Assembly (NCBI GenBank): GCA_951813525.2
Contig: CATOTJ020000002.1
Location: forward strand, 196,954-260,953
Length of the DNA: 64,000 nt
Source: an uncultured Limibaculum sp.
GTDB taxonomy: Bacteria > Pseudomonadota > Alphaproteobacteria > Rhodobacterales > Rhodobacteraceae
Direction: 5' to 3'
In this document: positions 6,564 through 43,345 of the stretch, piece after piece
How the letters are laid out: every line of letters begins with the position of its first letter
How positions within the stretch are numbered: position 1 is the first letter of the stretch
Translations under genes and position numbers: made by a program
The notes under the pieces: generated by a model
The model's database searches: none
What the model saw: only the letters and a program-made list of their open reading frames with translations
What the model was told of the DNA's origin: nothing

Positions 6564-6798
6564 TTGGAGCATCAATCCTCTGCTGAAAGCCTCTTCCTGT
6601 TGCTCAAACGCGAACGCATCAAACGTTTCACCCATCCGGCGCGGAAAGGCGCAAGGCGCGACGTGTTCGGGTGCATTGAGATGTTTTACAACCCTCGACG
6701 AAAACACACGCGCAACGGCATGCTGTCGCCGGTAGATTTCGAAGCAAGACAGCTCAAACTGAACCAGGCAGGTGTTTGGGAAACTAGGGGCAACCCAA
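6564..6798 (+). pseudogene. IS3-family transposase 3' remnant with right end
   Basis: AESLFLLLKRERIK...YNPRRKHTRNGMLSPVDFE; IR-like aaactaggggcaacccCA end. Confidence 0.7.
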
Positions 6799-27180: not shown

Positions 27181-27717
27181 AGATGCTGTTGAAAAACTCG
27201 TCATTGAAGTAGTGACTGATCGTTGATCCAATCCCCGTGGATTGGAAGAGGCGGGTACGATGTTGGTGCCGAGGCAAGAGGCGCAAGGCGCGCTGTTCTA
27301 CGAGTTTTCGATCGAGGGCGCCGTTCCCGTCGACCATATTCTGAGAAGGATCGACCGTTTCGTTGATCTGTCAGACATTCGCGGTTTCCTCGCTCCCTTT
27401 TATAGTTTGACTGGTCGCCCCTCGATTGATCTAGAGTTGATGGTCAGGATGCTGATCTTGGAGTACTGTATGGGCATCCGGTCAGAGCGGCGTCTTTGCG
27501 AAGACGTTCATCTCAACCTTGCGTACCGGTGGTTCTGTCGTCTCGACCTGGCAGATCCGGTTCCGGATCATTCGACATTCTCGAAGAACCGCCATGGTAG
27601 GTTCCGCGACAGCGACCTCTTCCGCCACCTTTTCGAGCAAGTGCTAGAGCGCTGCATCGCGGAGGGTTTGATAGGCGGCGATCAGTTTGGGGTCAACGCC
27701 TCGCTGATCAAGGCTGA
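27181..27717 (+). pseudogene. IS1182-family element, truncated by IS3
   Basis: gctgttgaaaaactc end; DHILRRID, GRPSIDLE, SERRLCE, PDHSTFSKNR; stops at IS3 IR. Confidence 0.85.
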
Positions 27718-28937
27718 TGACCTGAGCCCCAAGTTTCCTCCGGCGTTCGGAGAGTCCTTGGTTTGGGTTTGATGGTGCTACGCTGCGATCCTGTCCACTT
27801 TTATCTTCTCTGCAAATTCCATGGGTGTCAAATTTCCCAGTGCCGAATGTGGTCTGTGCCGGTTGTAGTCAGTCCGCCATTCTTGCAGGCCGTCTCGGGC
27901 GTCGCTGAGCGACGTGAACAGGGTCTCGTTCAGAAACTCGTCCCGCAGCCTTCCATTGAAGCTTTCGATGAAGGCGTTCTGGGTCGGCTTGCCGGGCGCT
28001 ATGTAGTGCCATCCGACGCCGGTCTCCTGGCACCAACGCAGCACTGCCATGCTGGTCATCTCGGTTCCGTTGTCTGAGACGATGGTGTTGGGCAGACCGC
28101 GGCTTGCAGTGATCCTGCTCAACTCCCGCGTCATCCGAAGCCCCGACAGGGACGTGTCCGCGACCAAGGCAAGGTTTTCACGGGTGAAATCGTCCACGAC
28201 GGCCAGGATCCGAAACCGCCGTCCGTCTGTGAATCGATCAGACACGAAGTCCAGGCTCCAGCGTTGGTTCGGGCCATCGGGCATAACCATTGGCCGTCGT
28301 GTCCCCAAGGCGCGCTTCCTGCCGCCTCTGCGGCGCACCTGCAGCCGTTCTTCGGCATAGATCCGTCGGACTTTCTTGATGTTCACTTCGAAACCCTCCC
28401 GGCACAGCATGACGTGGATACGGCGGTATCCGAACCGGCGACGGTCACCGGCGATCCGTCGGATGGCCTCGCGCAGATCGACGTCTTCAACGCGGCGTGA
28501 CCGGTACCGCACCGTCGATCGGTCAATGTTCAGAGTGGCGCACGCCCGGCGCTCGCTGACACCGTGGGCATCCCGCAGATGCGCCACAGCCAGCCTCTTG
28601 GCACCAGGCGTCACCACTTTTTTGAGTTCACATCCCGAAGCATCGTGATGTCCAGCATCTGCTCGGCGACCAGCTTCTTCAGGCGGGAATTCTCGTCCTC
28701 GAGATGCCGCAGCCGTTTGGCGTCCGAAGGCTCCATCCCGCCGAACTTGGATTTGTACTTGTAGAACGTACCCTGGCTGATCCCATAACGGCGGCAAATG
28801 TCAGGGGCCCTCTCACCAGCTTCGTGCTCTTTAAGCATCTGGATGATCTGTTCGTCGCTGAATCTCGGCTTCATGTTTGGTCCTCTCTCAATGGAGAACT
28901 CTACCATTCCGTGGAGGAGATTCAGGGGCTCAGGTCA
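27718..28937 (-). mobile_element. Complete IS3-family (IS407-like) element; orfA 28611..28874, orfB ~27778..28614
   Basis: TGACCTGAGCCCC terminal IRs; A6G frameshift motif; DDE core; no target duplication visible. Confidence 0.93.
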
Positions 28938-29484
28938 CCGGCTGTTCGTTCCGCGTGCAGCGAAGGTCCGATTGCGGTCCGCCAGCACCTGTAAGATGAA
29001 AGTCTTCAATCGCGCAGAGATCCCAGTAGTCCACGACGGGCGAAGGTCCGGTTCTCCCTTGAGACTTCCAATCTTCCGCGATGCAGCATTCGTCAACAAG
29101 GGCTCCAACCAGACATCTCTTGCAGCGCAAGATCGCCGATTCCGCACGCTGCTTCCGTCGTCAGTTACGGCCCGCACCGGCCATTTGCCGGTGTCGTTGA
29201 TGCTGCGGTCGCGTCCCCGTTTCCCGCCATTCGCCGCGGCAGCGAAATCTTACTTGGTGACTTCGGCAGGTGTCGGGGACAAAGCGGAAATAGCGGGTTT
29301 AATAACCACGATTCCGCAAGTCGGGGATGATGTAAAAAAAGTCATTCCAGAACTGAATCAGTATTGGTTGAACACGTCACCAAAGACAATTTGTTCCAGT
29401 AAGGGCACTAAGGATGATATAATCCCCTCCAGAGACGGTTAAATAAACAGAAAATGTTCACCAATTTTTTATCGGAGACATAAT

Positions 29485-31119
29485 ATGGCGCACCATTTAC
29501 ACGTATGGTCCGACATTCCGGGGCATCGTTCCATATCTACCGAGGGTCCAGCCAAGGCGCACGCTGACAACGATCCAGATGGCGTGGCTATCGAAGTCCG
29601 TAGTTTCAAGGATTTCGAGAAGGCTTTGGGTGAATTGGCCTACGACGGATATCTGTTCGACCGCGCCGACATCCATTGCCACGGCAGCCCAGGAAAGATT
29701 TATCTTGGCCGTGACAAGGTCGGCTATGAAGACGTGGACGCGCTGCGCGCCAGCGGACACCAGAATGGCTACGGATCATTGTTCAAGGCCGACAGCATCT
29801 TCAAACTAGGGTCTGTGGACATTCATCTTGACGCGATGAGCGCAGCAGCGAGGTTCCAGCAGGCGGCGTAGCTGCAATCAGTTTTGTCGTACCGCGTGGC
29901 TATGCCTCTGAATTCCTTTATCTTTGCGAAGTAGTTTTCGACGAGATGCCGCCATTTGTAGACCTCAATGTCGTAGGCGCGCTTTATCTTTCGATTGCCC
30001 TTAGGCGGGATCACGGCGGTTGCGCCGCGCGCATCGAGTTCTTTCAGCAGCCAATTCGCGTCAAATGCCCTGTCCGCGAGCAGGGCATCGAACGAAACAT
30101 CTTTGATCAGCGGCGCGACACCCTTCATATCGTGCGCCTGTCCCGGCAGAAGCAGGAACCGCACCAGGTTCCCAAGCGCATCGACCAGCGCTACGATCTT
30201 GGTCGTCAGCCCGCCACGCGAGCGTCCGATGGCCTGAGCCTGAGCCCCCCTTTTGCGCCGGTGGCTTTCTGGTGAACCTGAACAATGGTGCCATCGATAA
30301 GCGCATATTCAAGGTCGGGGTCATCACTCACCGCCTTGAAAAGACTCTCGAAAACACCTGCTTTGGCCCATCGCCGGAAGCGCCGGAACTGGCTGTTCCA
30401 ATTTCCAAAAGCGGGCGGCAGGTCACGCCACGGTGACCCCGTGCGCACACGCCAGAACACAGCCTCCACAAACAGCCGGTTATTCTTCGCGGTCACGCCG
30501 CTGTCGCTGGCTTTGCCTGGAAGGTGGGGTTCAAGCCGCTGCCACAAAACATCTGTCACCACAAACCGCTGCTCGTTCATTCAAACCTCCGTTTCGAAAG
30601 TTTGAATCAGAAATCAGATCAAATGGGAATCCTGATTGTCCACGGACCCTAGTTGGATGCAATGTTGGCCAATATGCCGCAGGCGAATACTTCCTGACCA
30701 TTTTCGCTGAGGTCTTCGTTGGCCGGAACGGCGGCTGGGTCGGGGGCAACACTGGGCTGGGACTGAACACCGAGAACGCCCCTCATCCGTTCGGGAACTG
30801 GGTCTGGGCCCATGCGGCGGGTGGGGCGACAACAGGGATGTCCGGGCACAGCTGGCTGACCGATGCGTCGATCAAGAAGCGGTGCGAGGATGCCAGCAAC
30901 CTGCTGAAGCATCTGAAAAACCGATGGGGCAAACCTGTCACATTCGAGGTTGAAACCTTCATACTGGAGCGGATCAAAGTGGCGCGTCAACACCTAGCGC
31001 TGGCCTCGAGGGACCGGTTCAGCTTGCTTTATATCGCCTGCGAGCATCTGGACCATGCCGAAGCCCGGTTGAAGAGGATCGTATGGGAACAAAGTCACCT
31101 GTATTCCGATCGGCATTGA
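29485..31119 (+). pseudogene. DUF4347/caspase-like-fold hypothetical protein (~263 aa) split by IS5
   Basis: Removing IS plus one CTAG restores ...IHCHGSPG...IFKLVGCNVG... in frame. Confidence 0.7.
29810..30648 (-). mobile_element. IS5-family (IS427-like) element, intact
   Basis: IRs GGTC(T/C)GTGGACA; CTAG at 29806..29809 and 30649..30652; orfA 30206..30580, orfB to 29823, A4G6 slip. Confidence 0.93.
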
Positions 31120-31260
31120 ATTCTGAGCCCACCTCGATGCGGCCTCGGGTTGAATGGGCTCTAACCCGTCATCCATTGCACCGCCGGGATCTGATGTAAT
31201 GTCTCCTTGCCAACGTCTGGTTGGCAGGGTGGATGGGAGCTTCAACTCGGAAGATCCATC

Positions 31261-31893
31261 ATGCAAACACCAAACTTACCCGCCATTCGCCCTCAGCGCC
31301 CAGCCTGGAATAAGGGACGGCTGGTTGGTCAGAAACGCCCGTTGATGCCGAAACATGTCTGGGCCATCCGTGTTCGGCTTGAGATCGCAGAAAACCACCG
31401 TGACCTTGCCTTGTTCAACACCGCGATCGACAGCAAGTTGCGCGGACGCGATCTCGTGCGGCTCCAGGTGGCTGACGTCTTTGCAGCAGGACAAGTCAAG
31501 GAACGAACCTCGGTGCTGCAGAGTAAAACGCAGAAACCGGTCAAGTTCGAGCTGACCGAAGGCACGCGCAAATCGATTGCGCAGTGGCTGAAGGACCCTC
31601 GGATGACCGGGCAGGAGTTCCTATGGCCGGGCCGGTTCCACGAACCCGTGCATATCTCGACGCGCCAATACGCTCGTCTTGTCCGAGATTGGGTCCAGTC
31701 GATCGGCTTGGAGCCAAGCGCATTCGGCACGCATTCAATGCGCCGTACAAAGGTCGCGCAGATCTATCGTAAGACTGGGAATTTGCGAGCGGTGCAACTT
31801 CTGCTCGGACACACAAAGATGGACAGCACTGTTCGTTACCTGGGTGTCGAGCTCGAAGATGCACTGGCAATTTCCGAAGCCGTCGAGCTCTGA
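31261..31893 (+). CDS. Minimal tyrosine recombinase (210 aa, catalytic domain only)
   Basis: SKLRG (R), HSMRR (HxxR), LLGH, TVRY; N-terminal WNKGRLVGQK motif. Confidence 0.9.
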   Translation: MQTPNLPAIRPQRPAWNKGRLVGQKRPLMPKHVWAIRVRLEIAENHRDLALFNTAIDSKLRGRDLVRLQVADVFAAGQVKERTSVLQSKTQKPVKFELTEGTRKSIAQWLKDPRMTGQEFLWPGRFHEPVHISTRQYARLVRDWVQSIGLEPSAFGTHSMRRTKVAQIYRKTGNLRAVQLLLGHTKMDSTVRYLGVELEDALAISEAVEL

Positions 31894-31900
31894 AGAGGAT

Positions 31901-31923
31901 GGGCCGCTCGTTGTGGGCGGCCC
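31901..31923 (+). terminator. GC hairpin after recombinase
   Basis: GGGCCGC-N9-GCGGCCC; weak U tail. Confidence 0.45.
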
Positions 31924-32437
31924 TTAGCAGACCATGGCGCTTCGCTCAACGAATGACAGGAGTCAGCCCAGACTTAAATCCCCCTTCTGACGGATGGGCT
32001 GCGAAACGCCCATTCGCTGGCTGCACATGGTGTTCCCGGACTTATCTCAAAAGCGGTCATACAAGCGCCATAGGCCCGACTGAAACCGTCAGATGTCGGC
32101 TTCGAGCCCATATTGACTGAGGCTGCATCTGGGCTGGCCGGCATTAAGGGTGCCAGACCGGACATTCTACTGGCCTGGGTTACAAGAAGACCTGAACCAC
32201 TGCAGACATCATGGATCGAGTAGACAACTGGACGGATCAGCAACACCTTAGGGCACATCTTCGTTTCCAGCTCCATGTCAACGGTGCAATGCAATTGGAA
32301 AAGACGAATTCGGGCATCGCGGTCTATCTGAATTGAGACGTTGAGCGCACATCAAGAAGATGAGAAACGCAAAATCCGTCGACAATTGATGTCGTAGGCC
32401 ACAAGCTCGGGAGCACTTTTAAAAAGGGGTTGAATCT

Positions 32438-33019
32438 ATGAAGGCCATTCTCAAAATCAGCGCCTTTGTGGCTGTCTTTTTTGCATCGTCTGCAGCTTGG
32501 GCCGCTTGCACAACAGATGTCAGAAAAGACGATTTGACAGATGAGCAGGTTCAAAGCCTGTACGACTGCGTGAAAAGCGAGCTGCGAGATGGTTATGCAT
32601 CAAGAGGCGAACCTTTGACGAAAGAATACCAAGGATGGAGAGCAGCTACAAAGCTTCCTGGTATTTCACGCGTTCACGGCAAGCGCTTCCTGATGATCTT
32701 TGCTAACAATGTTGCGTTCGACGAATATGTCAAATTCTCTCAATATCGCGGGGCTATGCCTGTCGGATCAATTCTCGCAATGGAAAGCTTCAACGTGACC
32801 AAAAGGGGCAAGGTTAAGCGCGGCCCACTGTTCCTGATGACAAAAGTTGAAACCGGCGGTGAGCAAGCAACATTTGGCAACTGGCTTTACATGGCTTTCA
32901 GGCCAAGTGGCAAAACCATGAAAGTCAAGCAAAGCCTTTGCCATCGTTGCCACGGCAATTTTGTCGAACAGGATTCACTGGGTTATCCATGGGAAGAAAA
33001 CCGGGTTTCAACTAACTAA
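32438..33019 (+). CDS. Cytochrome P460 / c'-beta family protein
   Basis: Signal peptide, YQGWR, P.GSILAMES, GNWLY, C-terminal CHRCH. Confidence 0.8.
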   Translation: MKAILKISAFVAVFFASSAAWAACTTDVRKDDLTDEQVQSLYDCVKSELRDGYASRGEPLTKEYQGWRAATKLPGISRVHGKRFLMIFANNVAFDEYVKFSQYRGAMPVGSILAMESFNVTKRGKVKRGPLFLMTKVETGGEQATFGNWLYMAFRPSGKTMKVKQSLCHRCHGNFVEQDSLGYPWEENRVSTN

Positions 33020-33788
33020 GACCATTCGCCTTTTGATGGAGCATTCAAAGGGTTACGCACCTACGCTTACGACGCATGACGGTTCATGGTACTTCCCGCC
33101 AGTAGGCCGGACGGCAGCTTTCGGGGGAGGATCGTGAATCCGAGTTTCATGCTCGACGGCGGCTTTGTCCCGATTGTGTGAATTCGCTTCGCCCTGACCT
33201 TCGCACTCGCCGCGAATGTCGGCAAACGAGAACGCGACCGCAACGATCAGAGGAGTTGGCAAACCGCAGTAACGAACCGTCCACGCTTTTCGACCATGTC
33301 CGCTTCCTGCGCGTTGCTGACGTTTAACGCGTGCTCGTCGAACTTCTGCTCGCCAGAAATGTCGGAGATAAATCTGAGCGTCAACACTCACGCTGTCGGA
33401 TGTCTGCTCTAGCAGTTCTACCAAGATCGGTGTTGCGGAGCAGCGAACGGCTCCTTCCCGCCAAACTCCCATAATGCGCCACGGTTTTGCGAACATTTCG
33501 CACACAATTTTACCCAGTTTCGGCTCATTCCCGATCATACTTGTGAAGGTCTGGTTAGCCGTTCGGTCGATCGCGCCGCTCGAACAGTGCTCGCGCCACC
33601 AAAAGCACATCGGTATGCTCAAAATCCTCGAGTTCTTCCCTGAATGGACTGGACTTCAGCGTCACGTGAAGCGTGAGTGTTCTTGCGCTGAGGGGCGGGC
33701 ATTCCCCCGACCTGGCACAGGCCCGGAAAACCCGGGCTCGTCTCAGTAGGAGCAGCGGGATTGGCCCGCGGCCGACACGGAGACGAAC

Positions 33789-34145
33789 ATGACCACGCAA
33801 ACCAAGCCCGCCACGAACCGGTCCCGCAGCAAGCCTGCGTCGCAGCCAGCAATACGAACGGCAGTGAAGGCGCGGCGTTCGCCGAAGGCAGACTCGGACG
33901 CCAAGGTTGAGAACGCCGCGAAGCCCCAGACCAAACGGGCGCAGTTGATCGCGCTTTTAGGCGCAAAGACGGGTGCTGACATCGAAGCCCTGAGCAAGAC
34001 GCTCGGCTGGCAGCAGCATTCGATCCGCGCCGCGCTTACTGGCTTGCGCAAGGCGGGCTTCGAGATCGCCCGCGAAACACCCGCCAGCGGCGGCGCGGCG
34101 CGCTACCGGATCACGGCCAGGCCGGAACCGGTCGCCGCACAATGA
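33789..34145 (+). CDS. DUF3489 winged-helix protein
   Basis: TKRAQLIALL...LGWQQHSIRAALTGLRK...YRI. Confidence 0.8.
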   Translation: MTTQTKPATNRSRSKPASQPAIRTAVKARRSPKADSDAKVENAAKPQTKRAQLIALLGAKTGADIEALSKTLGWQQHSIRAALTGLRKAGFEIARETPASGGAARYRITARPEPVAAQ

Positions 34146-34579
34146 CGACCTTGGAGGACAAGCAAGAGGGGGTGGCCCGCAAGATTGCGGGCCTCGCCGA
34201 TCTCGAGCGCGATGAACTGGCCGCACGCTGGGAAAAGGTCTTCGGGCGCCGTGCCCCGTTCAAGCTGTCGCGAACGATAATCGAGAAGGCATTGGCCCAT
34301 GAGATCCAGTGCAAGGCCTTTGGCGGGCTCTCGCGATCGACGCGTAAGGCCCTGCGCTTGGCTCTTGGCGCCGATCCCAACCCGGCTATCACTCGAACTG
34401 CCACACCGGGCGCCCGCCTGATCCGGGAATGGAACGGGCGGACCTATGAGGTCGATGTCGTCGAAGGCGGTTTTGAATGGGAGGGGCAGACCTGGCGCTC
34501 GCTCAGCCGCATCGCCCGCGAGATAACCGGAGCGAACTGGTCTGGCCCTAGGTTCTTCGGCCTGACCGGCAAGTCATGA
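34142..34579 (+). CDS. DUF2924 protein
   Basis: PGARLIREWNG, SLSRIAREITGANWSGPRFFGL. Confidence 0.85.
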   Translation: MTTLEDKQEGVARKIAGLADLERDELAARWEKVFGRRAPFKLSRTIIEKALAHEIQCKAFGGLSRSTRKALRLALGADPNPAITRTATPGARLIREWNGRTYEVDVVEGGFEWEGQTWRSLSRIAREITGANWSGPRFFGLTGKS

Positions 34580-36234
34580 GCCGGGCGCAAAAGATCCGCT
34601 GCGCGATCTACACCCGCAAATCCACCGAAGAGGGCTTGGACCAGGAGTTCAATTCACTGGATGCCCAGGCCGAGGCCTGGGCGGCCTACATCGCCAGCCA
34701 GAAGCACGAGGGTTGGATCGCGCTTCCGAACAGCTACGATGACGGTGGGATTTCTGGGGGATCGCTGGAACGGCCTGCGCTGCAGCGCCTGCTGGCCGAC
34801 ATCGACGCCAGCAAGATCGATCGGGTGGTGGTCTACAAGGTTGATCGGCTGACACGATCTCTGACCGACTTCTCGAAGCTGGTCGAGCGCTTCGATGCGG
34901 CCAACTGCTCCTTCGTCTCGGTGACGCAATCGTTCAACACCGCAACCAGCATGGGGCGGTTGACGCTCAACATGCTGCTGTCGTTCGCGCAATTCGAGCG
35001 CGAAGTCACAGCAGAGCGCATCCGCGACAAGATCGCTGCGTCGAAGCGCAAGGGCATTTGGATGGGTGGGAGTGTCCCCTTAGGATACGATGCCAAGGAC
35101 AGAACACTGGTGACGAACGAGGGCGAAGCCCAGACGGTTCGGCAGCTGTTTGCGCTCTATGACCAACACGGCTCGGTGCGGGCAGTGGCCGCGGAAGCCG
35201 ATCGCTTACGTCTCACAACGAAACAGCGGGTCGGGAGCAATGGCGAGATCACCGGCGGCACATCGTTCAGCCGCGGCCACATCTACCACCTGCTGTCGAA
35301 CCCGATCTATATCGGGCGCATCCGGCATCGTCAGGAAACCTATGACGGACTGCATTCGGGAATCATCGCGCAGGATCTCTGGGACCGGGTTCAAGCAAAG
35401 CTTGCCGCCAACGCGGCCCGTTCCAAACGCCGCGAAACCGCAGCATCACCTTCTCCCCTGGTTGGAAAGTTCTTCGATGAGATCGGTGATGCTCTGACGC
35501 CATCGCACGCCGTCAAGAATGGGCGGCGTTATCGCTACTACATCTCGCACCGTCTGATCGCACGGAGCGGCGAGGACCAAATCGATGGATGGCGCCTGCC
35601 AGCCAAAACGCTGGAAGAGGCAGTTGCGGGATTGATCACAACGTTCCTGAAAGATCCGAAGACACCATCAAAAGTGATTAGGGATGCAGATGTCGCGGAG
35701 ATCGCCAGCGCACGACGCATCTTCGAACAGATCGAGAAGGCCCTTGGATCGCCCGACGCCGATACCATTCTGACCACGCTGATCTGCAAAGGCAAAGTTG
35801 CAGCTAGCGACCTGAGCATTGTTCTGGATACATCGAACTTAGCATCCCACCTCCAGTTATCCGTCGCCCGGCTCAACCCAGATGCCGTGATCCTGAACAG
35901 CTGCTTCGTGCTTCGCAAACGCGGTGTCGAAGCCAGGATGATCCTGAACGATCAGGCACCAGTCGTTGACAAACTGCTGTTGCACACCACGGCCCTTGGC
36001 CATGCGTGGCTTGACGATCTCAAGCAGGGCATCACGATCAAACAGATCGCCGAGCGGGAAAACATCACCCGCCAGCGCGTTGCAGCTATTATCGAACTGG
36101 CATTCCTCGCACCTGACATCGTTCAAGACATCGTGGAAGGTCGCCAGGACCCTGCTCTCACGACTGACGCCCTGCTTAAATCCCAGCGCCCAATGCACTG
36201 GGATCAGCAGCGCGCGCGAGTCTCCAGACTCTGA
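34576..36234 (+). CDS. Large serine recombinase (island integrase), 552 aa
   Basis: YTRKS catalytic Ser, VYKVDRLTRS, FAQFERE, recombinase domain, PLGY. Confidence 0.93.
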   Translation: MSRAQKIRCAIYTRKSTEEGLDQEFNSLDAQAEAWAAYIASQKHEGWIALPNSYDDGGISGGSLERPALQRLLADIDASKIDRVVVYKVDRLTRSLTDFSKLVERFDAANCSFVSVTQSFNTATSMGRLTLNMLLSFAQFEREVTAERIRDKIAASKRKGIWMGGSVPLGYDAKDRTLVTNEGEAQTVRQLFALYDQHGSVRAVAAEADRLRLTTKQRVGSNGEITGGTSFSRGHIYHLLSNPIYIGRIRHRQETYDGLHSGIIAQDLWDRVQAKLAANAARSKRRETAASPSPLVGKFFDEIGDALTPSHAVKNGRRYRYYISHRLIARSGEDQIDGWRLPAKTLEEAVAGLITTFLKDPKTPSKVIRDADVAEIASARRIFEQIEKALGSPDADTILTTLICKGKVAASDLSIVLDTSNLASHLQLSVARLNPDAVILNSCFVLRKRGVEARMILNDQAPVVDKLLLHTTALGHAWLDDLKQGITIKQIAERENITRQRVAAIIELAFLAPDIVQDIVEGRQDPALTTDALLKSQRPMHWDQQRARVSRL

Positions 36235-37200: not shown

Positions 37201-38361
37201 CGGCTGCGTTCCTCCAGATTGTTCAGCGCCTTTAACGCCTTGCCGTCATCCCTCGACCGACGGGCGACGCGAAGCATCGATGAGAGGTGGTTCGGCAGTC
37301 GACGAAGCCGTAAGACCCCTTGCCCGGCAGTCGTTTGCGAAGCATAGTGGCGAGAGGGGCCCTACCGGAGTCGGCCTCTCTTTGGTTGTTTCATCGGCAC
37401 TTTTAACCCCACCCGCTGCCACAGGCGCAATGCCGCCGATTTTGTGAGCAGCATCGATTGCTGTCGGCCCATATGGCCGTGAGTGTGGCAATTCAGCTTA
37501 GGCGTAGATTGCTGGAACTTATTCGGGCATTTTACTACCCTCGGATTAATGTGATTTCGATTCCAAGCCCGAAGCTGGATATTATAAACAAAATCATCGT
37601 AACGGGCAGCTTGGGCCAGTTGCTCTTAAGTAAATAAATATCGTATATAATAAACACTATTTTTGGGAGAAAAATTAGAATAAAAATATGTATAGCTACT
37701 GGTAGTTTTTAAAGCGCGCAGAAATAGATCTTCGAATTCTAAGCCAAGAATCATTATAACGCTATTATATAGTTGGATGATATGGTCATTAAAGTAGAAA
37801 GACAAATATCAAATACGTTAAGTGCAAAAACAGTAAGAATTGTCGATAACAGATCAATTTTTGGTAGCCTCTATATCGGCCATTCTTAGCTTAATAATCC
37901 AAGTTCAGCGAGGAGAAATTCTTGGTATTAATGCGAACCCACTATTTTCAAGCGTCGGGGCGCCTAAATTGGGCGCATCCTCGAATATCGGTAGATGATC
38001 GATATTGACCCAACCAGCTTTCTTTGTCCCAGGACGTAGTGCGACAAAACAGGAAACGATCCTTGTAGAATTGTCGTGGCCCATACGATCGTCAATTCGC
38101 CCAACAATACGCATCAACGGTCGTGCTGAATCTTTCGCGCTTCCGACCCAAATATGACCTGTTTCAATTTTTGTCAGGCCTCGCGAATTAGCAGTTTCGC
38201 CCAGTCTATAAAATGCCAGTTCAATCTGCCGAGCATATTTGGTCGAACGTCAAACAAAGTCCCGGTTGCCGACAAATTCCAAGCCAAGGATTTCGCGGTT
38301 GAAGCGATTGGCGGCAAACCGGCGCGCAGGCGCAACAATCTGGGCATTGCTGTACGTCGTG

Positions 38362-39704
38362 TGTGGATGGCTCCTGCATTGCAAGGACGAATTTGTCTAT
38401 CGCGCGTCGTGTCAGTACAGTCGTGTGTCCGGCCTGTTCGCGCGGTGACATGTAGTCTCCGCTGGCCTTGATGATTTCCGCAGGCAAGGCTCCATTCGGC
38501 AAAGCGAACTCGGAGGTCCGCGGACATTCCCGGAGTGTCCTGGCCTTTGGCTGACTATGCGTGCATCAGTTCATTCGTCTTGCATCTCGTGGGCGGCGCG
38601 TATCAGAACGCAGGCGCCCGGTATTCAGTTCCTTTCGCAAGCAGCGCCCAGATCACCCTGGCTGTCTTGTTGGCCATGGCGACGGTGGCGAGCCTGAATG
38701 GCTTCTCGGCGATGATGTTTGCGGTCCAAACGTCCGTGCGTTCGGGATGTGTTCGGGCGAGCAGCCCGCGGGAGGTCATGCCAGCGACCAGTAGCCTTCT
38801 GATGTATTGATCGCCTTTCTTCGTGATTTTACCTAGCCTCTCTTTACCACCGCTTGATCGGTTCAGTGGTGTGAGTCCCAACCAAGCAGCGAGGTCCCGG
38901 CCTGTTTTGAATTGCTTCGCGTCGCCGATCGTCGTGACGATCGCTGACGCTGTGATTGGGCCAACACCAGGGATTCTCTGAAGTCGGCGACAGCGTTCGT
39001 CGAGAAAGGCATGCTGCTCGATTAGTCGAGTGTAAACTTCGGCGCGTTGGTTCACGGCGAGGATATGGTCGCACAGGCTCCAGATCGTTGGCAGGCTTAC
39101 CTCAGGCAGACCAGCGTGTTCTCCGTCAATGAACTCCTGCGCGAACTTCAGCGTCGCTTCAATTCCCGTCGGCAACACGTGGCCGAACTCCCGAAGAACG
39201 CTTCGCACCATATTCGCGAGCTGGGTGCGTTGGCGAATGACTAAGTCCCGTGAGCGGTGAACCGCCAGGAAAGCCTGCTGATCTACCGTCTTTATCTTCA
39301 CAAACCTCATCGTGGGGCGGCGAACCGCTTCGCAGATGGCCTCCGCATCGACTGCGTCCGTCTTTCCCCGTTTGACATATGGCTTCACATAGAACGCGGG
39401 CATCAACCGGACATCATGTCCAAACTTACTGATCTCTCGGCCCCAGTGGTGTGCTGAGCCGCAAGCTTCCATGCCGACAACACATCTTGGCAGCCGGTCA
39501 AAGAACTTCAGCAAGTCCTTGCGTTTGATCGTCCGATTGAATGCAACCTCACCGGACTCAGAAATTCCGTGAACTTGGAAAACATCCTTGGCCAGGTCGA
39601 GGCCGATTGTGGCAACTTGCATGGGGTGGCTCCTCTCTTGCAGATGATGACATCTGCACTATGGCGCATTGCGACGCCGTTGGAGCAGGAGCCATCCACC
39701 CCAT
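38362..39704 (-). mobile_element. IS110-family, IS1111-subgroup element (ends approximate)
   Basis: Perfect 15-bp sub-terminal IR GTGGATGGCTCCTGC at 38363..38377 and 39685..39699; long 3' non-coding end. Confidence 0.88.
38603..39622 (-). CDS. IS110/IS1111 DEDD transposase/recombinase
   Basis: GLDLAK, MEACG, KTDAVDAEAI, PGVG, GLTP..SSGG motifs. Confidence 0.95.
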   Translation of the reverse strand: MQVATIGLDLAKDVFQVHGISESGEVAFNRTIKRKDLLKFFDRLPRCVVGMEACGSAHHWGREISKFGHDVRLMPAFYVKPYVKRGKTDAVDAEAICEAVRRPTMRFVKIKTVDQQAFLAVHRSRDLVIRQRTQLANMVRSVLREFGHVLPTGIEATLKFAQEFIDGEHAGLPEVSLPTIWSLCDHILAVNQRAEVYTRLIEQHAFLDERCRRLQRIPGVGPITASAIVTTIGDAKQFKTGRDLAAWLGLTPLNRSSGGKERLGKITKKGDQYIRRLLVAGMTSRGLLARTHPERTDVWTANIIAEKPFRLATVAMANKTARVIWALLAKGTEYRAPAF

Positions 39705-39765: not shown

Positions 39766-41412
39766 TCATTCCTCGATGGGAACGATGATCGGTTCCGGCG
39801 CTGGTTTGCCGAGGATGAGATCGGAAGCCTTTTCTGCAATCATCATAGTGCCGGCTGCCAGGTTGGCAGACATCATCCTTGGCATGATCGATGCATCGAC
39901 CACACGCAGCGCATGGACACCGTGGACCCGCAGCTGATCGTCGACCACCGCGACCGGATCAGTTATGGGTGACATGCGGCAGGTCCCCATCAGGTGGAAA
40001 GTGCTGGTCCCGGTTTGGCGGGCCATATCCAGCAATTCGTCGTCAGTCTGAACGTCGTCACCTGGCTGTTCCTCACGGTCAATGAATGGGGCCATTGCTC
40101 GGGTGTGGATCAGGCTGCGCCCCAGGCGCATCGCGGCCACGACTGCGCGCCGATCGGCCTCATGCGCCAGGTAGTTTGGCTGAATGGCCGGTTTCTGAAA
40201 CGGGTCATCTGATCTTGAGCGGACGAAACCGCTGCTCTCGGGCCTGTGCTGCCAGGCCGCGAGCGTGCACCCCGGTGCTTCAGCCAGCACGCCGTGGCGG
40301 GTGGGATCGAAGCTTGCGGGTGTGAAGATGAACTGCAGGTCATTGCTTTTCGCCGCAGGATCCGAGTGCCAGAAGCCATAGACCATTGACGGATTCAGAT
40401 CGACGATGCTTTTTGCGCCGAAGACGTATTTCAGAATCTCCCAACCAAGGCGTGGGCCGCGCGAGATCTCGTTGAGTGTCTGGATCCCCTTTACTCGCGC
40501 CACGACGCGCGGCGCGATGTGGTCGCGCAAGTTTTCGCCGACGCCGGGCAGGTGGTGAACGGTCTCTATCCCCAGATCGTTCAACAGGTCGGTCGGCCCG
40601 ACGCCCGAAAGCTGCAGCAGTTGCGGTGAGTTCACCGCTCCGCTTGACAGGATCACTTCGCGATTGGCGCGCACGTGCTTTGGTGTGCCGCCGCGGCCGC
40701 CTTGGGAGTAAGCGACGCCGACGGCCTTTTTACCCTCGAAAAGCACCTTCGTCGCGAAAGCCCCGGTCACGACCGTCAGATTTCGCCGCGACCGCGCCGG
40801 TCGTAGAAAAGCACGCGCAGTGCTGACCCGGCGCCCGCCGCGCGCAGTCCGCTGGACATAGTTGATGCCCTCTTGCCGCGCGCCATTGTAGTCGGGATTG
40901 CGCGGGATCCCGAGTTCCGCAGCGCCGGCGATAAACGCGTCGGCGAGCGGATGCGTATAGAGCAAGGCCTCGACGGTCATCGGACCTTCGCGGCCCCGGA
41001 ACACATCGTCGCCCTGGCCAACCCAGCGTTCGCATCGCTTGAAATAAGGCAGAACGTCCGCGTATCCCCAGCCATGATTGCCCAACTGCGCCCACAGGTC
41101 ATAATCCAGGCGCTGGCCACGGTTGTAAATCATGCCGTTGATTGAACTGGATCCGCCCAACGTCTTGCCGCGAGGCACGGGGATCCGCCGCCCGTTAGTA
41201 TTTGCGCCTGGGTCCGCTTCGTACATCCAGTCGATTCGAGGGTTGCCAAGGTTCTTCACAAATCCCGACGGCAGATGGATATAGATGCTTCGATCACGAG
41301 GCCCCGCCTCGAGTAGGCAGACAGTATGCTTTCCACCCGCAGAAAGCCGGTTGGCGAGAATGCATCCGGCCGAGCCGGCACCGACGACAATATAGTCGAA
41401 CGTGTCTGCCAT
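39766..41412 (-). CDS. GMC oxidoreductase (choline dehydrogenase-like)
   Basis: GAGSAG, PRGKTLGGSSSING, GENLRDH, FHLMGTCRM, LRVVDAS. Confidence 0.9.
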   Translation of the reverse strand: MADTFDYIVVGAGSAGCILANRLSAGGKHTVCLLEAGPRDRSIYIHLPSGFVKNLGNPRIDWMYEADPGANTNGRRIPVPRGKTLGGSSSINGMIYNRGQRLDYDLWAQLGNHGWGYADVLPYFKRCERWVGQGDDVFRGREGPMTVEALLYTHPLADAFIAGAAELGIPRNPDYNGARQEGINYVQRTARGGRRVSTARAFLRPARSRRNLTVVTGAFATKVLFEGKKAVGVAYSQGGRGGTPKHVRANREVILSSGAVNSPQLLQLSGVGPTDLLNDLGIETVHHLPGVGENLRDHIAPRVVARVKGIQTLNEISRGPRLGWEILKYVFGAKSIVDLNPSMVYGFWHSDPAAKSNDLQFIFTPASFDPTRHGVLAEAPGCTLAAWQHRPESSGFVRSRSDDPFQKPAIQPNYLAHEADRRAVVAAMRLGRSLIHTRAMAPFIDREEQPGDDVQTDDELLDMARQTGTSTFHLMGTCRMSPITDPVAVVDDQLRVHGVHALRVVDASIMPRMMSANLAAGTMMIAEKASDLILGKPAPEPIIVPIEE

Positions 41413-42109
41413 GCGTTTGCTACATATGTCCCCTGCAAAGCGCCATGATAACGACTTTAGCTCTATTCATCTCGCGACACAGAGATCAATCGGTACCCGT
41501 TTCGCGCAAACTCGCCATTTGAAACCTCGCTATCTAAGTCACTATGGTCTCAGTTTTCAACGTTGAATGGCGGCAAACCGAACGCTGCAGTGCAGCATTC
41601 AGGGCGCATGCCACAGTCCGCCGAGGGCCGTCCGCTTTGTCGTCAACTCCGGACTTAGCTTACCGCGGATCGGTCAACCAGCATCCGCCAAAAAATCGGA
41701 CATTTGAAGAGGTTTGATGGTTGCGCGCCAGTGGGAGTTTTGTGCCTGCATCCATTTTAGGACGAGAGCCCTTGTACCGCCTTGAACCCAGTGCGACCAG
41801 TCGGCGGCGGTGAGCGGGTGCGGCCAAAGATTGGATCGCAATTCGTGACAAGGGAACGGGTGGTCACGAAGTAACAAGAGATGAAGTAGAAAGCATGGGC
41901 CTCCGGTTCGGTTGAATTGGCCAAGGTAACGGCCGCACCGCTCCGGCCCGGTATCGGGCGGCTCATTGGATCGAGACTTCAATTCCGGATTGATCGTAAG
42001 ACTGATAAGTGCCCGGATGCGGGGGAGCCCCGGAAAATTCGACTTGAGCCGACCCGATCATGTCCGGCACATTTCCAATGTTCTTAGAACCTGAACCTGG
42101 GAGGTACGA

Positions 42110-43345
42110 ATGATACGGCGCTTTGTTACTATGGCCTCGACGGCTGGATTGCTGGCGGTACTGTCAGCGGGACCGGTCTCGGCGGATATCGCTGTCGTCG
42201 ATCCGGCAAGTATCGGTCTGGATCCGGCAAAGCTGGAAGACGTGCGAACGGCGTTGCGCCAGGATATCGCGGACGGGCGTGTGCCCGGAGCGGTCATGTT
42301 GATCGCACGCAAGGGCAAGGTTGGTTTTTTCGAAGCCGTCGGTCAGCAAGGTCCCGATGACACCACGCCGATGAGTTCGGACACGATCTTCCGGATTTAT
42401 TCAATGACCAAGCCGATCGTTTCGGTTGCGGCGATGAAATTGGTCGAACAGGGGCGCCTCGGTCTGGATGAACCGATCTCGACCTATATTCCGTTGTTTG
42501 CCGAGATGACCGTATTCCAGCAAGCGGGTGACACCTTTCTCATCAAGGAGGACGGCAGCCGCCCCGCCAACACGCAGATCACGGTTCGCGATTTGCTGCG
42601 GCACACGTCCGGGCTGATCTATGGGATATTCGACAAGGGAAGTCTGGGGCAGCTTTATACCGAGGCGGGTATTGCCGGATCGGATTTCGATCTGGACGAG
42701 CTGTCGTTCCGGATCTCGAAGATTCCGCTGCGCTTCGATCCGGGCACGTCCTGGCATTATTCCAGATCGACCGATGTGCTGGGTCATGTGATCGAACGCG
42801 CGACCGGGCTGACGCTGGATGTTGCGCTGAAGCAGCTGATCTTTGATCCGCTGGGGATGAAGGACACCGCCTTCTACCACGACAAGTCCCAGGCGGCGCG
42901 GATCGCTCAGCCGGTCGAACCGCTGTTTGATGTGACGGACCCCCAGCCGATGCTGTCCGGCGGCGGTGGACTGACCTCGACCATGGAGGATTATCTTCGG
43001 TTTGCGATGATGTTGCGCAATCGCGGCAGCCTGGACGGAGTTCAGATCATTCGGCCCGAAACCCTGGCTTTGATGACCACGAACCAGATCGAAGGCATGG
43101 ATCTGAAATATTTCTATCCAGGTGCGGCCTATGGTTTTGGCCTGGGCTTTGCCGTTCGCCTGACGGACGATGGCCCCTATCCGGGGACTGTCGGCGATTT
43201 CTGGTGGCGCGGGCTGGCGGGTACATATTTCTGGGTTGACCCGCAAAAAGATCTGTTTGCGATCTTCATGATCCAGGACCCGGCCAACCGGGTTCACTAT
43301 ACGGGCACGACGCGTAACTGGGTGTACAGCACGCTGAAGGACTGA
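42110..43345 (+). CDS. Exported serine hydrolase, beta-lactamase/EstB family
   Basis: Signal peptide, SMTK (SxxK), LLRHTSG, Y-S, GGGGL, WxGxAGT. Confidence 0.88.
   Translation: MIRRFVTMASTAGLLAVLSAGPVSADIAVVDPASIGLDPAKLEDVRTALRQDIADGRVPGAVMLIARKGKVGFFEAVGQQGPDDTTPMSSDTIFRIYSMTKPIVSVAAMKLVEQGRLGLDEPISTYIPLFAEMTVFQQAGDTFLIKEDGSRPANTQITVRDLLRHTSGLIYGIFDKGSLGQLYTEAGIAGSDFDLDELSFRISKIPLRFDPGTSWHYSRSTDVLGHVIERATGLTLDVALKQLIFDPLGMKDTAFYHDKSQAARIAQPVEPLFDVTDPQPMLSGGGGLTSTMEDYLRFAMMLRNRGSLDGVQIIRPETLALMTTNQIEGMDLKYFYPGAAYGFGLGFAVRLTDDGPYPGTVGDFWWRGLAGTYFWVDPQKDLFAIFMIQDPANRVHYTGTTRNWVYSTLKD

Follow-up and report, generated by a model that had tools for sequence, protein, structure and literature searches.

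Organization of the locus

The window, i.e., the whole stretch of 64,000 nucleotides that was analyzed, carries at positions 31261-31893 the gene of a small tyrosine recombinase, which is preceded by a leader of ~140 nt and followed by a GC-rich hairpin. The features of the gene and of its surroundings are as follows:

31125-31131/31155-31161: hairpin 1, GAGCCCA/TGGGCTC
31125..31140, minus strand: left-junction motif, incomplete and inverted, GAGCCCA-CCTCGATGC, forming the 5′ arm of hairpin 1 and lying outside the mobile unit
31156..31260, plus strand: mobile part of the leader, 105 nt, conserved and shared with the gene between copies
31170-31175/31230-31235: CATCCA/TGGATG pairing
31190..31203, plus strand: TG...TA...T block, consensus CCTGTGATATGG, nearly invariant columns in the leader alignment
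31205..31229, plus strand: H2 hairpin or palindrome, CCTTGCCAAC-GTCTG-GTTGGCAGGG, arms 31205-31214/31220-31229, 90% complementary
31231..31260, plus strand: stem-loop over the ribosome-binding site (RBS), outer GGATGG/CCATCC, inner CTTC/GAAG, Shine-Dalgarno GGAAGA, from folding and the pair counts of helix 3
31261-31893, plus strand: tyrosine recombinase ORF, 210 aa
31901..31923, plus strand: 3′ GC hairpin, GGGCCGC...GCGGCCC, -19.7 kcal/mol, z = -2.3, with no T-run behind it

An alternative in-frame TTG start at 31207 would extend the protein to 228 aa; the homologs begin at the ATG instead.

The recombinase and its family

The sole Pfam domain of the protein was PF00589 (residues 45-195, E = 2e-16), whose score of 60.6 bits lies above the curated cut-off of 27.1 that defines the tyrosine recombinase superfamily. 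By our own reading of the alignments the catalytic residues are R61, K89, H158-x-x-R161, H184 and Y193, and these columns were invariant or nearly so in alignments of 22 and 29 sequences covering alpha-, beta- and gammaproteobacterial homologs. The Xer models matched by their C-terminal halves only (e.g., XerC positions 125-281 of 295), and in the AlphaFold model residues 1-26 were disordered and the first helix started from residue 30. The original prediction of a 210-aa recombinase that has all the catalytic residues but lacks an N-terminal domain was therefore confirmed. A conserved basic peptide, W16-N-K-G-R-x-x-G-Q-K-x-P-L28, precedes the catalytic domain. The quality of the structural model was poor from the single sequence (pLDDT 45) and moderate with an alignment (pLDDT 65), so that the Foldseek TM-scores of ~0.3 support the superfamily and nothing finer.

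By sequence and fold the closest proteins were of the Xer group (XerA, XerC-like, XerD and XerH). Equivalence to XerA, XerC or XerD was rejected, since the scores were far below the respective equivalog cut-offs (55.8 vs 220, 48.9 vs 335 and 31.4 vs 330), and so was an integron integrase, TIGR02249 scoring 19.7 against a cut-off of 265 and covering residues 131-203 only. No FimB/FimE model was present among the NCBIfam matches at E ≤ 0.01, and a phmmer search of the PDB with the recombinase gave zero matches. The PADLOC models matched neither the window recombinase nor two E. coli homologs, which indicates that it is not a known anti-phage component.

Nearly all relatives among the matches listed have 190-210 aa, and members of the family are frequent in marine Rhodobacteraceae and in Burkholderiales and occur in ~18% of complete E. 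coli genomes, where the homologs share 55% identity with the window recombinase. The many genes of ~200-210 aa that are annotated as "tyrosine-type recombinase/integrase" thus form a coherent family under strong constraint and are not truncated pseudogenes. The family looks uncharacterized, and no description of it or of its sites was found in the open-access literature. When plasmids were searched by megablast with the window region, no near-identical DNA was obtained. One metatranscriptome, the only RNA data set obtained, contained a few diverged fragments and was uninformative.

Boundaries of a 768-bp cassette

Positions 31156-31923 form a self-contained cassette of 768 bp with the minimal tyrosine recombinase as its only gene. 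Near-identical copies in different genera share only the region from -105/-108 to +661 relative to the ATG, and their flanks are unrelated. This was observed in two sets of copies that are 99.6-100% identical, one from Aliiroseovarius and Actibacterium (L025, L027, L038 and L041) and the other from two Paracoccus and a Pseudooceanicola (L026, L060 and L043). GGGCTC opens the unit, and the far edge of the 3′ hairpin closes it. Furthermore, the match to a paralogous contig of X2, another strain of the source organism, begins at 31156, and the leader's 5′ 36 nt, including one arm of hairpin 1, remain outside the gene-linked mobile unit.

Such a unit could be an autonomous element similar to an insertion sequence, in which the 768 bp excise and insert at a preferred target motif, the neighboring genes are bystanders, and short forms without the gene, like the R and M repeat modules (see below), are non-autonomous derivatives comparable to MITEs. 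The sharp-ended identical copies across genera, the multiple copies per genome with some of them at contig ends, the diverged paralogs in the source organism, the inverted end motifs (GGGC.../...GCCC), the short forms with both unit ends, and the presence at ~1091 positions spread over 994 E. coli genomes all agree with this reading, and terminal inverted repeats together with multiple sharp-ended copies are what an insertion sequence would display. However, no target-site duplication was seen at the junctions examined, and the E. coli loci described below also speak against it, so that we consider an autonomous element unlikely.

Proposed core sites at both ends of the unit

Short arms and proposed 6-bp spacers were recognized at both ends of the cassette:

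31147..31155, plus strand: left core site, outer (recipient-side) arm GGGTTGAAT, degenerate; GGTCAAnnT or GTCYGCnnT in relatives, from the junction consensus
31156..31161, plus strand: proposed left 6-bp spacer GGGCTC, the left unit boundary, from the copy identity boundaries and a contig breakpoint
31162..31170, plus strand: left inner arm TAACCCGTC, family consensus nnAGCCGAC
31918-31923, plus strand: proposed right spacer CGGCCC, the right unit boundary, last six bases of the 3′ hairpin
31924..31932, plus strand: right outer arm TTAGCAGAC, start of an R repeat module, consensus AnAGCRGAC
32095..32109, minus strand: perfect inverted left-site core GGGCTCGAAGCCGAC, 0 mismatches, preceded on that strand by GCAGCCTCAGTCAATAT

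In the junction consensus the GGGCTC spacer had the highest information content, and the outer arms were inverted relative to each other. In our reading each end of the unit falls at the spacer of a 9-6-9 core site, whose arms are GTCYGCnnT and AnAGCRGAC. Perfect 9-6-9 sites were present at the left boundary of L033 (GTCTGCTAT-GGGCTC-ATTGCAGAC) and of L060 (GTCCGCAAT-GGGCTC-GGAGCAGAC), and the strict pattern had 4 matches vs ~0.35 in shuffled sequences. In the window itself the arms of the left site are degenerate, the 15-mer core carrying 2 mismatches (31156-31170). The core of the right site matched with 1 mismatch (31918-31932), and in Rhodobacteraceae the right inner arm is unrecognizable because the 3′ hairpin fills that position. 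Short degenerate patterns (3 mismatches) matched the GC-rich window at near-chance rates and were uninformative. Conservation of the arms extends from the Rhodobacteraceae as far as E. coli.

The leader is conserved, but most of its predicted structure is not

The original prediction described a ~140-nt, highly structured leader whose RNA or folded single-stranded DNA would guide site recognition, or which would alternatively be a cis-regulator or the recombination site itself. The GAGCCCA/TGGGCTC and CCTTGCCAAC/GTTGGCAGGG pairings and the 3′ GC hairpin are all present. The leader structure as a whole was only modestly above chance: the 144-nt leader folded with -54.9 kcal/mol (z = -2.08; 9 of 200 shuffles were as stable), whereas the 111 nt whose conservation goes along with that of the gene gave z = -1.32, with 19 of 200 shuffles as stable, so that the mobile part behaves much like a shuffled sequence. 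Hairpin 1 and the CATCCA/TGGATG pairing exist, but both are specific to the window and are not conserved.

The leader is conserved in homologs from GGGCTC through the ATG; lack of conservation, which the original prediction had named as counting against it, was thus not what was found. Across 77 loci the conservation starts only at TGGGCTC. When 75 homologous leaders were folded with RNAalifold, one 5-bp helix (H2) survived, with a consensus energy of -3.5 kcal/mol. In the alignment of the 77 loci H2 had the compensatory variants CAGC/GCTG, CGGC/GCCG, CGAC/GTCG and CATC/GATG. Some two-sided changes were observed in the H2 palindrome and in the RBS stem (H3), where 75.9% of the cells were paired vs 27-54% with the partners slid, a modest covariation in a shuffle test that closely related sequences can inflate. 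A further candidate helix at the left end, H1 (GGCT/AGCC), paired in 62% of the cells and was reinterpreted as the spacer plus the inner arm. A structure of the whole leader RNA was rejected by the consensus folding and the shuffle comparison, and no match to Rfam was detected at E ≤ 1 on either strand of positions 29000-34000.

The leader resembles a 5′ UTR, since it is continuous with the ribosome site and the start codon, and a stem over these two elements was predicted in all three lineages. In the E. coli homologs the leader is of 53-54 nt and consists almost entirely of one stem across the start codon, with 15 bp over the ribosome site and the AUG (z = -7.1). A scan for sigma-70 promoters found no canonical promoter in the window or in L025, and the TG...TA...T block is for that reason given as a putative extended -10-like element. 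Likewise, a scan for intrinsic terminators found none in the window or in L025, so that the 3′ hairpin does not qualify as a terminator of the classical type. H2 is a candidate operator or RNA hairpin.

A guided enzyme, i.e., one that has no DNA-binding N-terminal domain and finds its sites through a leader RNA or through folded single-stranded leader DNA, would account for the missing core-binding domain and for the conservation of the leader, and palindromic sites could fold as hairpins when single-stranded. Nevertheless, the single 5-bp helix left by consensus folding, the shuffle-like stability of the mobile leader, the non-conservation of hairpin 1 and of CATCCA/TGGATG, the lack of an Rfam match, and the E. 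coli leaders, nearly all one stem, argue against it; no variable loops complementary to the flanks were seen, and FimB/FimE, which are of similar size, use double-stranded DNA without a guide. With a 5′-UTR-like leader and with short double-stranded sites that have palindromic arms, as is usual for tyrosine recombinases, this is the least probable of the explanations considered. The original interpretation is therefore partly supported: its observation holds, its main interpretation, the guide, does not, and for the alternative that it had offered, the evidence favors cis-regulator and recombination site both at once.

Sites and proposed cargo exchange in E. coli

The E. coli genomes contain 24-bp sites with two types of spacer, GTCCGCTCC-TCGCTC-AGAGCGGAC and GTCCGCTCT-GTGCCA-GGAGCGGAC, which are intergenic and flank the cargo of a P2-prophage hotspot; they lie between accessory genes, and some stand alone behind unrelated genes. 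The arm AGCGGAC is located directly 3′ of the E. coli homologs, as at the right site of the window. Of 5426 genomes, 803 had the paired site, with close to one copy in each, and the recombinase gene was within ~3 kb of it in 6 of the 7 cases checked. Two loci, L085 and L086, are 99.5% identical over the left flank and the unit, and split 3 nt past AGCGGACATT into different cargo. Their left flank was present in 342 genomes, and the right flank of L085 was also present in just 110 of these.

These loci bear on the autonomous element considered above, because at the right-end breakpoint the downstream cargo is swapped while the unit stays put, and because sites also occur alone behind unrelated genes. 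In addition, the predicted "empty pad" allele, i.e., the empty target, was found in 0 genomes at one well-sampled E. coli locus; since it was absent there, only the copy boundaries point to insertion or exchange of the cassette itself.

Another explanation considered was an invertible switch such as fimS (FimB/FimE) or the Salmonella H segment (Hin), in which a segment that includes the recombinase would flip and toggle the neighboring genes. The size of the recombinase is that of FimB/FimE, the end sites are mutually inverted with spacers that are alike in reverse complement (GGGCTC vs GGGCCG, TCGCTC vs TGGCAC), and the perfect left-site core lies inverted 170 bp downstream in the window. However, the predicted inverted junction was observed in 0 of ~340 E. 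coli genomes with a common left flank, the spacers differ at 2 of 6 positions, and in the Cre/lox and FLP/FRT systems a spacer mismatch normally blocks strand exchange. Furthermore, across 80 loci the repeats near the gene were mostly in the same orientation as the recombinase. A switch of this kind is highly improbable.

An ordinary gene with a regulatory 5′ UTR (promoter, operator and translational hairpin), surrounded by unrelated intergenic repeats or terminators and with only coincidental sites, would explain the RBS stem in all lineages and a possible operator function of the H2 palindrome, and short site patterns alone were not enriched in the window. This is difficult to reconcile with the coincidence of the unit boundaries and the proposed spacers in independent sets of copies, with the recurrence of the arm sequences beside 45%-diverged homologs in another bacterial class, and with the paired E. 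coli site, which is rare and gene-linked; the explanation is accordingly quite unlikely.

Repeat modules around the cassette

Related repeats and a gene-less short form are distributed around the cassette:

29100..29173, plus strand: gene-less short form, GGGCTC + CAACCAGAC ... CGGCCC, 74 nt, with the ends of the recombinase unit, 2 kb upstream
29167..29253, plus strand: R repeat module behind the short form
31915..32032, plus strand: R repeat module directly behind the unit (nhmmer match, +654..+771 relative to the ATG)
33173..33264, minus strand: R repeat module, inverted
38284..38365, minus strand: R repeat module, inverted, adjoining an IS110-family transposase gene
41561..41634, minus strand: R repeat module, inverted

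The short form has ends and orientation identical to those of the recombinase unit. By our own count, the R and M models had 13 matches in the 100 kb that lie no farther than 10 kb from the gene and 3 matches in the remaining 126 kb, in a comparison where the models were built from recombinase-adjacent sequence and all the loci had been chosen for carrying the gene. At L013 a module of 1.7 kb is duplicated, with R copies at its borders. The cassette thus occupies a junction between accessory-gene modules that are separated by related, site-carrying repeats.

A model for the recombinase cassette

The explanation that we favor, with a probability of roughly 60%, is that of a recombinase-only cassette placed at the junctions of accessory modules and acting on double-stranded sites, whose leader combines the left site with translational control. 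The start of the cassette would consist of the 6-bp spacer GGGCTC and the inner arm of one core site, and at the far side of the 3′ GC hairpin it would close with the spacer of another core site, CGGCCC, so that the outer arms (GTCYGCnnT on the left and AnAGCRGAC on the right) would be a property of the surrounding DNA. Most likely the recombinase itself binds these short sites as double-stranded DNA, by means of the catalytic domain together with the conserved basic N-terminal peptide, with recombinases of the size of FimB/FimE as the precedent for such recognition, and it would exchange or insert DNA segments between sites. Beyond the left site, the leader would act as a 5′ UTR with a -10-like block, a conserved palindrome and a stem over the RBS and the start codon, and this stem would hold the translation of the recombinase low, e.g., from read-through transcripts. 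The "structured leader" is thus most likely one end of a DNA recombination site plus ordinary expression-control hairpins, and not a guide RNA.

More tentatively, this large, unnamed family of catalytic-domain-only recombinases might run a natural cassette exchange in Alpha-, Beta- and Gammaproteobacteria, through 24-bp sites with common arms and two alternating types of spacer. The sites would alternate along plasmids, islands, P2 and lambdoid prophage hotspots and defence-gene neighborhoods, like-with-like recombination between replicons would swap gene modules, and the recombinase gene would be carried along where two modules meet. Should the site model be correct, an enzyme of 200 aa and a site of 24 bp would make up a simple two-part system that explains the shuffling of accessory and defence genes among the prophages, plasmids and islands of common bacteria, with relevance to laboratory and probiotic E. 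coli strains, and such a system, a compact equivalent in nature of cassette exchange by Cre/lox, could become a tool.

Comparison with known systems

FimB and FimE are tyrosine recombinases of ~200 aa with little beyond the catalytic domain, whose sites in double-stranded DNA are short inverted repeats of 9 bp. The enzyme described here resembles them in its size and in its proposed short inverted double-stranded sites, but it matched no FimB/FimE model, its gene lies within the site-bounded unit, inversion was not seen in the E. coli genomes, and its N-terminal WNKGRxxGQKxPL peptide is distinct.

Two other types of mobile element share single traits with the cassette. In the transposase leaders of IS10 and IS50 an end stem pairs the ribosome site and the start codon and limits read-through expression. 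The stems predicted here in all three lineages are comparable, with a putative function, whereas IS10 and IS50 encode DDE transposases. In IS110/IS1111, which encode bridge-RNA recombinases, the recombinase gene is likewise small and one end of the element is conserved and non-coding, but those enzymes are of the DEDD type, and here only PF00589 and no conserved multi-loop RNA was found.

As in integrons, a tyrosine recombinase is found with co-oriented short palindromic sites behind unrelated genes, and modules are duplicated or exchanged in variable or defence regions. IntI is ~110 aa longer than the window recombinase. The sites also differ, since they have symmetric arms of 7-9 bp, a 6-bp spacer and two spacer types, and have neither the bulged folded form of attC nor its GTTRRRY core; moreover, the recombinase gene is located between two sites, and the modules can hold several genes on either strand. 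The plan of arm, 6-bp spacer and arm is that of Xer/dif and of the pdif modules of Acinetobacter plasmids, where the sites flank plasmid accessory modules; the Xer proteins, however, have a core-binding domain and a chromosomal housekeeping role, whereas the gene described here is mobile and multi-copy.

The arrangement as a whole can be compared with recombinase-mediated cassette exchange (RMCE) at heterospecific lox or FRT sites, in which two sites with common arms and different spacers flank a segment that is swapped by like-with-like recombination. RMCE is a laboratory method engineered from Cre or FLP, and no natural RMCE-like system was found in the literature searched; the exchange proposed here is a putative one. 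An RMCE-like exchange leaves the outer arms of the recipient in place, and this fits the identity boundaries that were observed between the copies of the cassette.

A discrete mobile unit

The boundaries of the recombinase unit were defined by an all-against-all comparison of loci, followed by printing of the junctions. Two sets of near-identical copies were common only over the region from -105/-108 to +661 relative to the ATG. One set (L025, L027, L038 and L041, homologous loci from Aliiroseovarius and Actibacterium) was 99.6-100% identical, and the other (L026, L043 and L060, from two Paracoccus species and Pseudooceanicola) 98.8-99.6% identical. In these sets the left boundary lay before GGGCTC and the right boundary past the closing GGCCC of the 3' hairpin, and the flanks were unrelated. 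Furthermore, the match of a paralogous contig in a second strain of the source organism starts exactly at 31156, and read depth points to several diverged copies. No target duplication was observed at the junctions examined (the two copy sets and the E. coli units). Judging from these boundaries, the gene forms a mobile unit of its own, with the following features:

31156-31923, + strand: recombinase unit, 768 bp, from the copy-set boundaries
31261-31893, + strand: recombinase ORF, 210 aa

Variant contigs and contig depth over window 31000-32150 (sequence runs X1 and X2) likewise pointed to several diverged recombinase paralogues in the source organism, and the second strain did not carry this particular insertion context.

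The recombinase and its family

The sole Pfam domain of the protein is PF00589 (residues 45-195, 60.6 bits; cut-off 27.1). With the Xer and integron models only the C-terminal halves aligned, with scores far under the cut-offs. The AlphaFold model (29-sequence alignment, pLDDT 65) showed residues 1-26 disordered and the first helix at residue 30, and a PDB profile search and Foldseek returned tyrosine recombinases only (XerA, Cre, XerD, XerH and the Tn1549 integrase). Because of these half-model alignments, the disordered N-terminus and the recombinase-only structure matches, we conclude that the enzyme is without an arm-binding or core-binding domain. The catalytic residues read off the alignments are R61, K89, H158-x-x-R161, H184 and Y193, and in these columns there is little or no variation among homologues from three proteobacterial classes, so that the original prediction of a minimal enzyme with a full catalytic set was borne out. 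A short basic peptide, W16-N-K-G-R-x-x-G-Q-K-x-P-L28, lies N-terminal to the catalytic domain and is almost invariant in the homologue alignments.

The family is very large (>8000 proteins above the search threshold), and the best 120 of these relatives are 83-100% identical, nearly all of 210 aa, and from Rhodobacteraceae. A Burkholderiales branch, almost all members of which have 208 aa, is as large as the Rhodobacteraceae branch, and homologues of ~195-210 aa that are 50-60% identical are found on plasmids of Enterobacteriaceae, Cupriavidus, Rhizobium, Sphingobium, Acetobacter and Vibrio. A genome scan detected at least 544 stretches encoding a family member, with two or three copies in several genomes and many copies at contig ends. 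PADLOC gave no match for the small recombinase.

Putative recombination sites

Of 5426 complete E. coli genomes, 994 carry the unit (there ~700 bp), in contexts that include the P2-like prophage tail hotspot of the type strain, islands with dynamin-family and reverse-transcriptase genes, a defective lambdoid prophage of strain 042 and an IncY plasmid. TCGCTC forms the start of this unit, and at its end a hairpin precedes AGCGGACATT. Two chromosomal loci (L085 and L086) are 99.5% identical over the left flank and the unit, and carry differing cargo from 3 nt past AGCGGACATT; their left flank is common to 342 genomes, and the same right flank is also found in only 110. Between the downstream E. 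coli genes lie sites of 24 bp, in which inverted 9-bp arms enclose a spacer of 6 bp; the spacer comes in two types:

spacer TCGCTC: GTCCGCTCC-TCGCTC-AGAGCGGAC
spacer GTGCCA: GTCCGCTCT-GTGCCA-GGAGCGGAC

The two types are often paired, 18 nt apart, and the cargo of the P2 hotspot is bracketed by one site of each. By this arrangement the recombinase unit is a putative site pair in which the leader, the ORF and the hairpin replace the 18-nt filler. The 66-nt site pair occurs in 803 of the 5426 genomes, about once per genome, and a recombinase gene lay within ~3 kb of it in 6 of 7 checkable cases. At one well-sampled E. coli locus, neither an inverted allele nor an "empty pad" allele was found in any genome.

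In the P2-like prophage of E. coli ATCC 11775 (L084), type-2 and type-1 sites at 6747 and 9155 flank variable cargo (a DUF5677 gene, the small recombinase and a hypothetical gene) between the tail-fibre assembly and tail-sheath genes, and these sites may mark how this hotspot is loaded. In the E. coli islands L085, L086 and L092 the neighbours of the small recombinase and its sites are dynamin-family, GTPase, RdcB-family, reverse-transcriptase and patatin-like genes, which are often linked to phage defence.

In Rhodobacteraceae the left junction consensus is ...GGTCAnTnT|GGGCTC..AGCCGAC... and the right one ...CGGCCC|AnAGCnGACnTTCG; the outer arms are mutually inverted copies, and the left inner arm matches the right outer arm. 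Perfect left sites, starting 9 nt ahead of the unit boundary, were observed in L033 (GTCTGCTAT-GGGCTC-ATTGCAGAC) and L060 (GTCCGCAAT-GGGCTC-GGAGCAGAC). The arms GTCYGC.../...GCRGAC are identical in Rhodobacteraceae and E. coli, and they are regarded as the probable recognition sequence of the enzyme mainly because they persist despite 45% divergence of the proteins. The identity boundaries of near-identical copies are the outer edges of both spacers, where a site-specific exchange in which the recipient keeps its own outer arms would leave them. From these boundaries, the conserved leader of the window would open with the spacer plus the inner arm (15 nt, 31156-31170), a core that is somewhat degenerate in this copy.

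The leader

The original prediction proposed that site recognition may depend on a leader RNA or on folded ssDNA. All the stems it named, and the 3' GC hairpin, are present in the window, and the fold of the whole 144 nt is somewhat more stable than those of shuffled sequences (z = -2.08). In 77 aligned upstream regions, conservation starts abruptly at TGGGCTC (31155) and runs through to the ATG, so that the GAGCCCA arm of hairpin 1 (31125) falls outside the conserved block; neither hairpin 1 nor the CATCCA/TGGATG pairing recurs in these relatives. RNAalifold retains one 5-bp helix, the CCAAC/GTTGG core of the second hairpin (H2, 31205-31229), with a consensus of -3.5 kcal/mol. The conserved 111 nt gave z = -1.3 for the window and -0.7 for L025, and Rfam had no match in 29000-34000. 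The leader as such is conserved, though not in the form of one large structure; of the named leader hairpins only the H2 core is kept in relatives, and guidance by a leader RNA or by folded ssDNA is not supported.

Pairs were also counted in the leader alignment over three specified helices, with slid partners and shuffles as controls. Paired cells amounted to 75.9% versus 27-54% with the partners slid, and two-sided changes occurred at 14 pairs versus 8.7 in shuffles, counts that give modest support because the leader sequences are closely related. This support appears fair for H2 and for the Shine-Dalgarno stem (H3, 31231-31260), and weak for a putative small stem at the 5' end. Among the H2 copies there are compensatory variants (CAGC/GCTG, CGGC/GCCG, CGAC/GTCG and CATC/GATG) as well as T-G pairs on the + strand, but the commonest version carries a T-T mismatch; either an RNA hairpin or a symmetric operator would be compatible with these data. 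Pairing of the ribosome site in a stem, which in many copies takes in the start codon as well, is predicted in Rhodobacteraceae, weakly in Cupriavidus, and very strongly in E. coli (15 bp, -22.5 kcal/mol, z = -7.1). Since structure is retained though the sequence differs between lineages, this predicted stem argues for translational control of the recombinase. The fallback of the original prediction, in which the leader is either a cis-regulator or the recombination site, agrees with the results on both counts.

Another stretch of the leader (consensus CCTGTGATATGG), in which T, G, T, A and T positions hardly vary, looks like an extended -10 element, a reading that stays an inference because a simple sigma-70 scan found no promoter in the window or L025. 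A search for transcript data gave nothing beyond a few diverged fragments in one metatranscriptome. L003 and L020 lack the left site; in its place a different repeat (..GCGGCCATTCGTATCTAGTGCGGCATC) joins the leader near -75 from the ATG, immediately ahead of the -10-like block. The downstream 3 kb of L020 matches L002 and its upstream part matches L003, which suggests a second breakpoint inside the leader, at a GCAGCAT motif.

Repeat modules and neighbouring genes

Both flanks of the unit consist of mosaic intergenic repeats, which were modelled with two profile HMMs (M, left side; R, right side). These detected the following extra copies, and none in the other 50 kb of the window:

29073-29118, + strand: repeat copy
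29167-29253, + strand: repeat copy
32087-32129, - strand: repeat copy
33173-33264, - strand: repeat copy
38284-38365, - strand: repeat copy, R module
41561-41634, - strand: repeat copy

There are also gene-less short forms, in which GGGCTC, ~74 nt and CGGCCC reproduce both ends of the recombinase unit:

29100-29173: short form

Most loci carry extra repeat copies, usually co-oriented with the gene and spaced 0.6-2.5 kb, with one or two unrelated genes on either strand between them; in L013 a 1.7-kb module is present twice, with an R copy at the end of each. In five extended sequences (226 kb), 13 non-adjacent repeat matches lay within 10 kb of the gene versus 3 beyond, an enrichment of ~5.5-fold. 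Candidate cargo genes between the repeat modules of the window are:

32438-33019: cytochrome P460 family protein
39766-41412: GMC oxidoreductase
42110-43345: beta-lactamase-fold (serine hydrolase) protein

On the Phaeobacter inhibens plasmid pP92_b (L081, 10674-12350), a TniQ-family gene stops 6 nt short of an R module, and the 6.4-kb module between that R copy and the next holds an ABC transporter operon, a LysR regulator and a metallophosphoesterase, so that modules can be whole operons.

Other mobile elements lie nearby. An IS110/IS116/IS902-family transposase gene (38603-39622, - strand; PF01548 and PF02371) is ~240 bp from the R module at 38284-38365. IS110-family elements often target palindromic repeats, so that this one may have used the module as its target. 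At 33789-36234 (+ strand), three co-directional genes encode DUF3489, DUF2924 and a large serine recombinase of 552 aa (Resolvase and Recombinase domains), and two of these genes overlap by a few bases; the group looks like the integration module of another mobile element, between two inverted R modules. Insertion-sequence remains cluster at 27242-30580:

27242-27772: further ORF
27778-28907, - strand: IS3-family element, two overlapping transposase ORFs
29823-30164 and 30206-30580, - strand: IS5/IS4-family transposase, apparently split in two ORFs

The IS5-type copy sits between the short form and the recombinase unit. An ORF at 30433-31119 (+ strand), with no Pfam or NCBIfam match, ends 36 nt upstream of the unit; because its long N-terminal part overlaps the opposite-strand IS5-type ORF, only its 3' part may be real.

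A proposed recombinase-only cassette

Taken together, we consider it somewhat probable (about 0.6) that we are dealing with a mobile cassette, with the recombinase as its only gene and with cognate 9-6-9 sites (9-bp arm, 6-bp spacer, 9-bp arm); such cassettes would sit in arrays of accessory-gene modules in three proteobacterial classes. Both the cassette and its sites are directly testable. No paper describing the family or its sites was found in the open-access literature searched, where the cassette appears undescribed; one earlier survey of tyrosine recombinases considered five proteins of <200 aa in one plasmid family to be probably defective.
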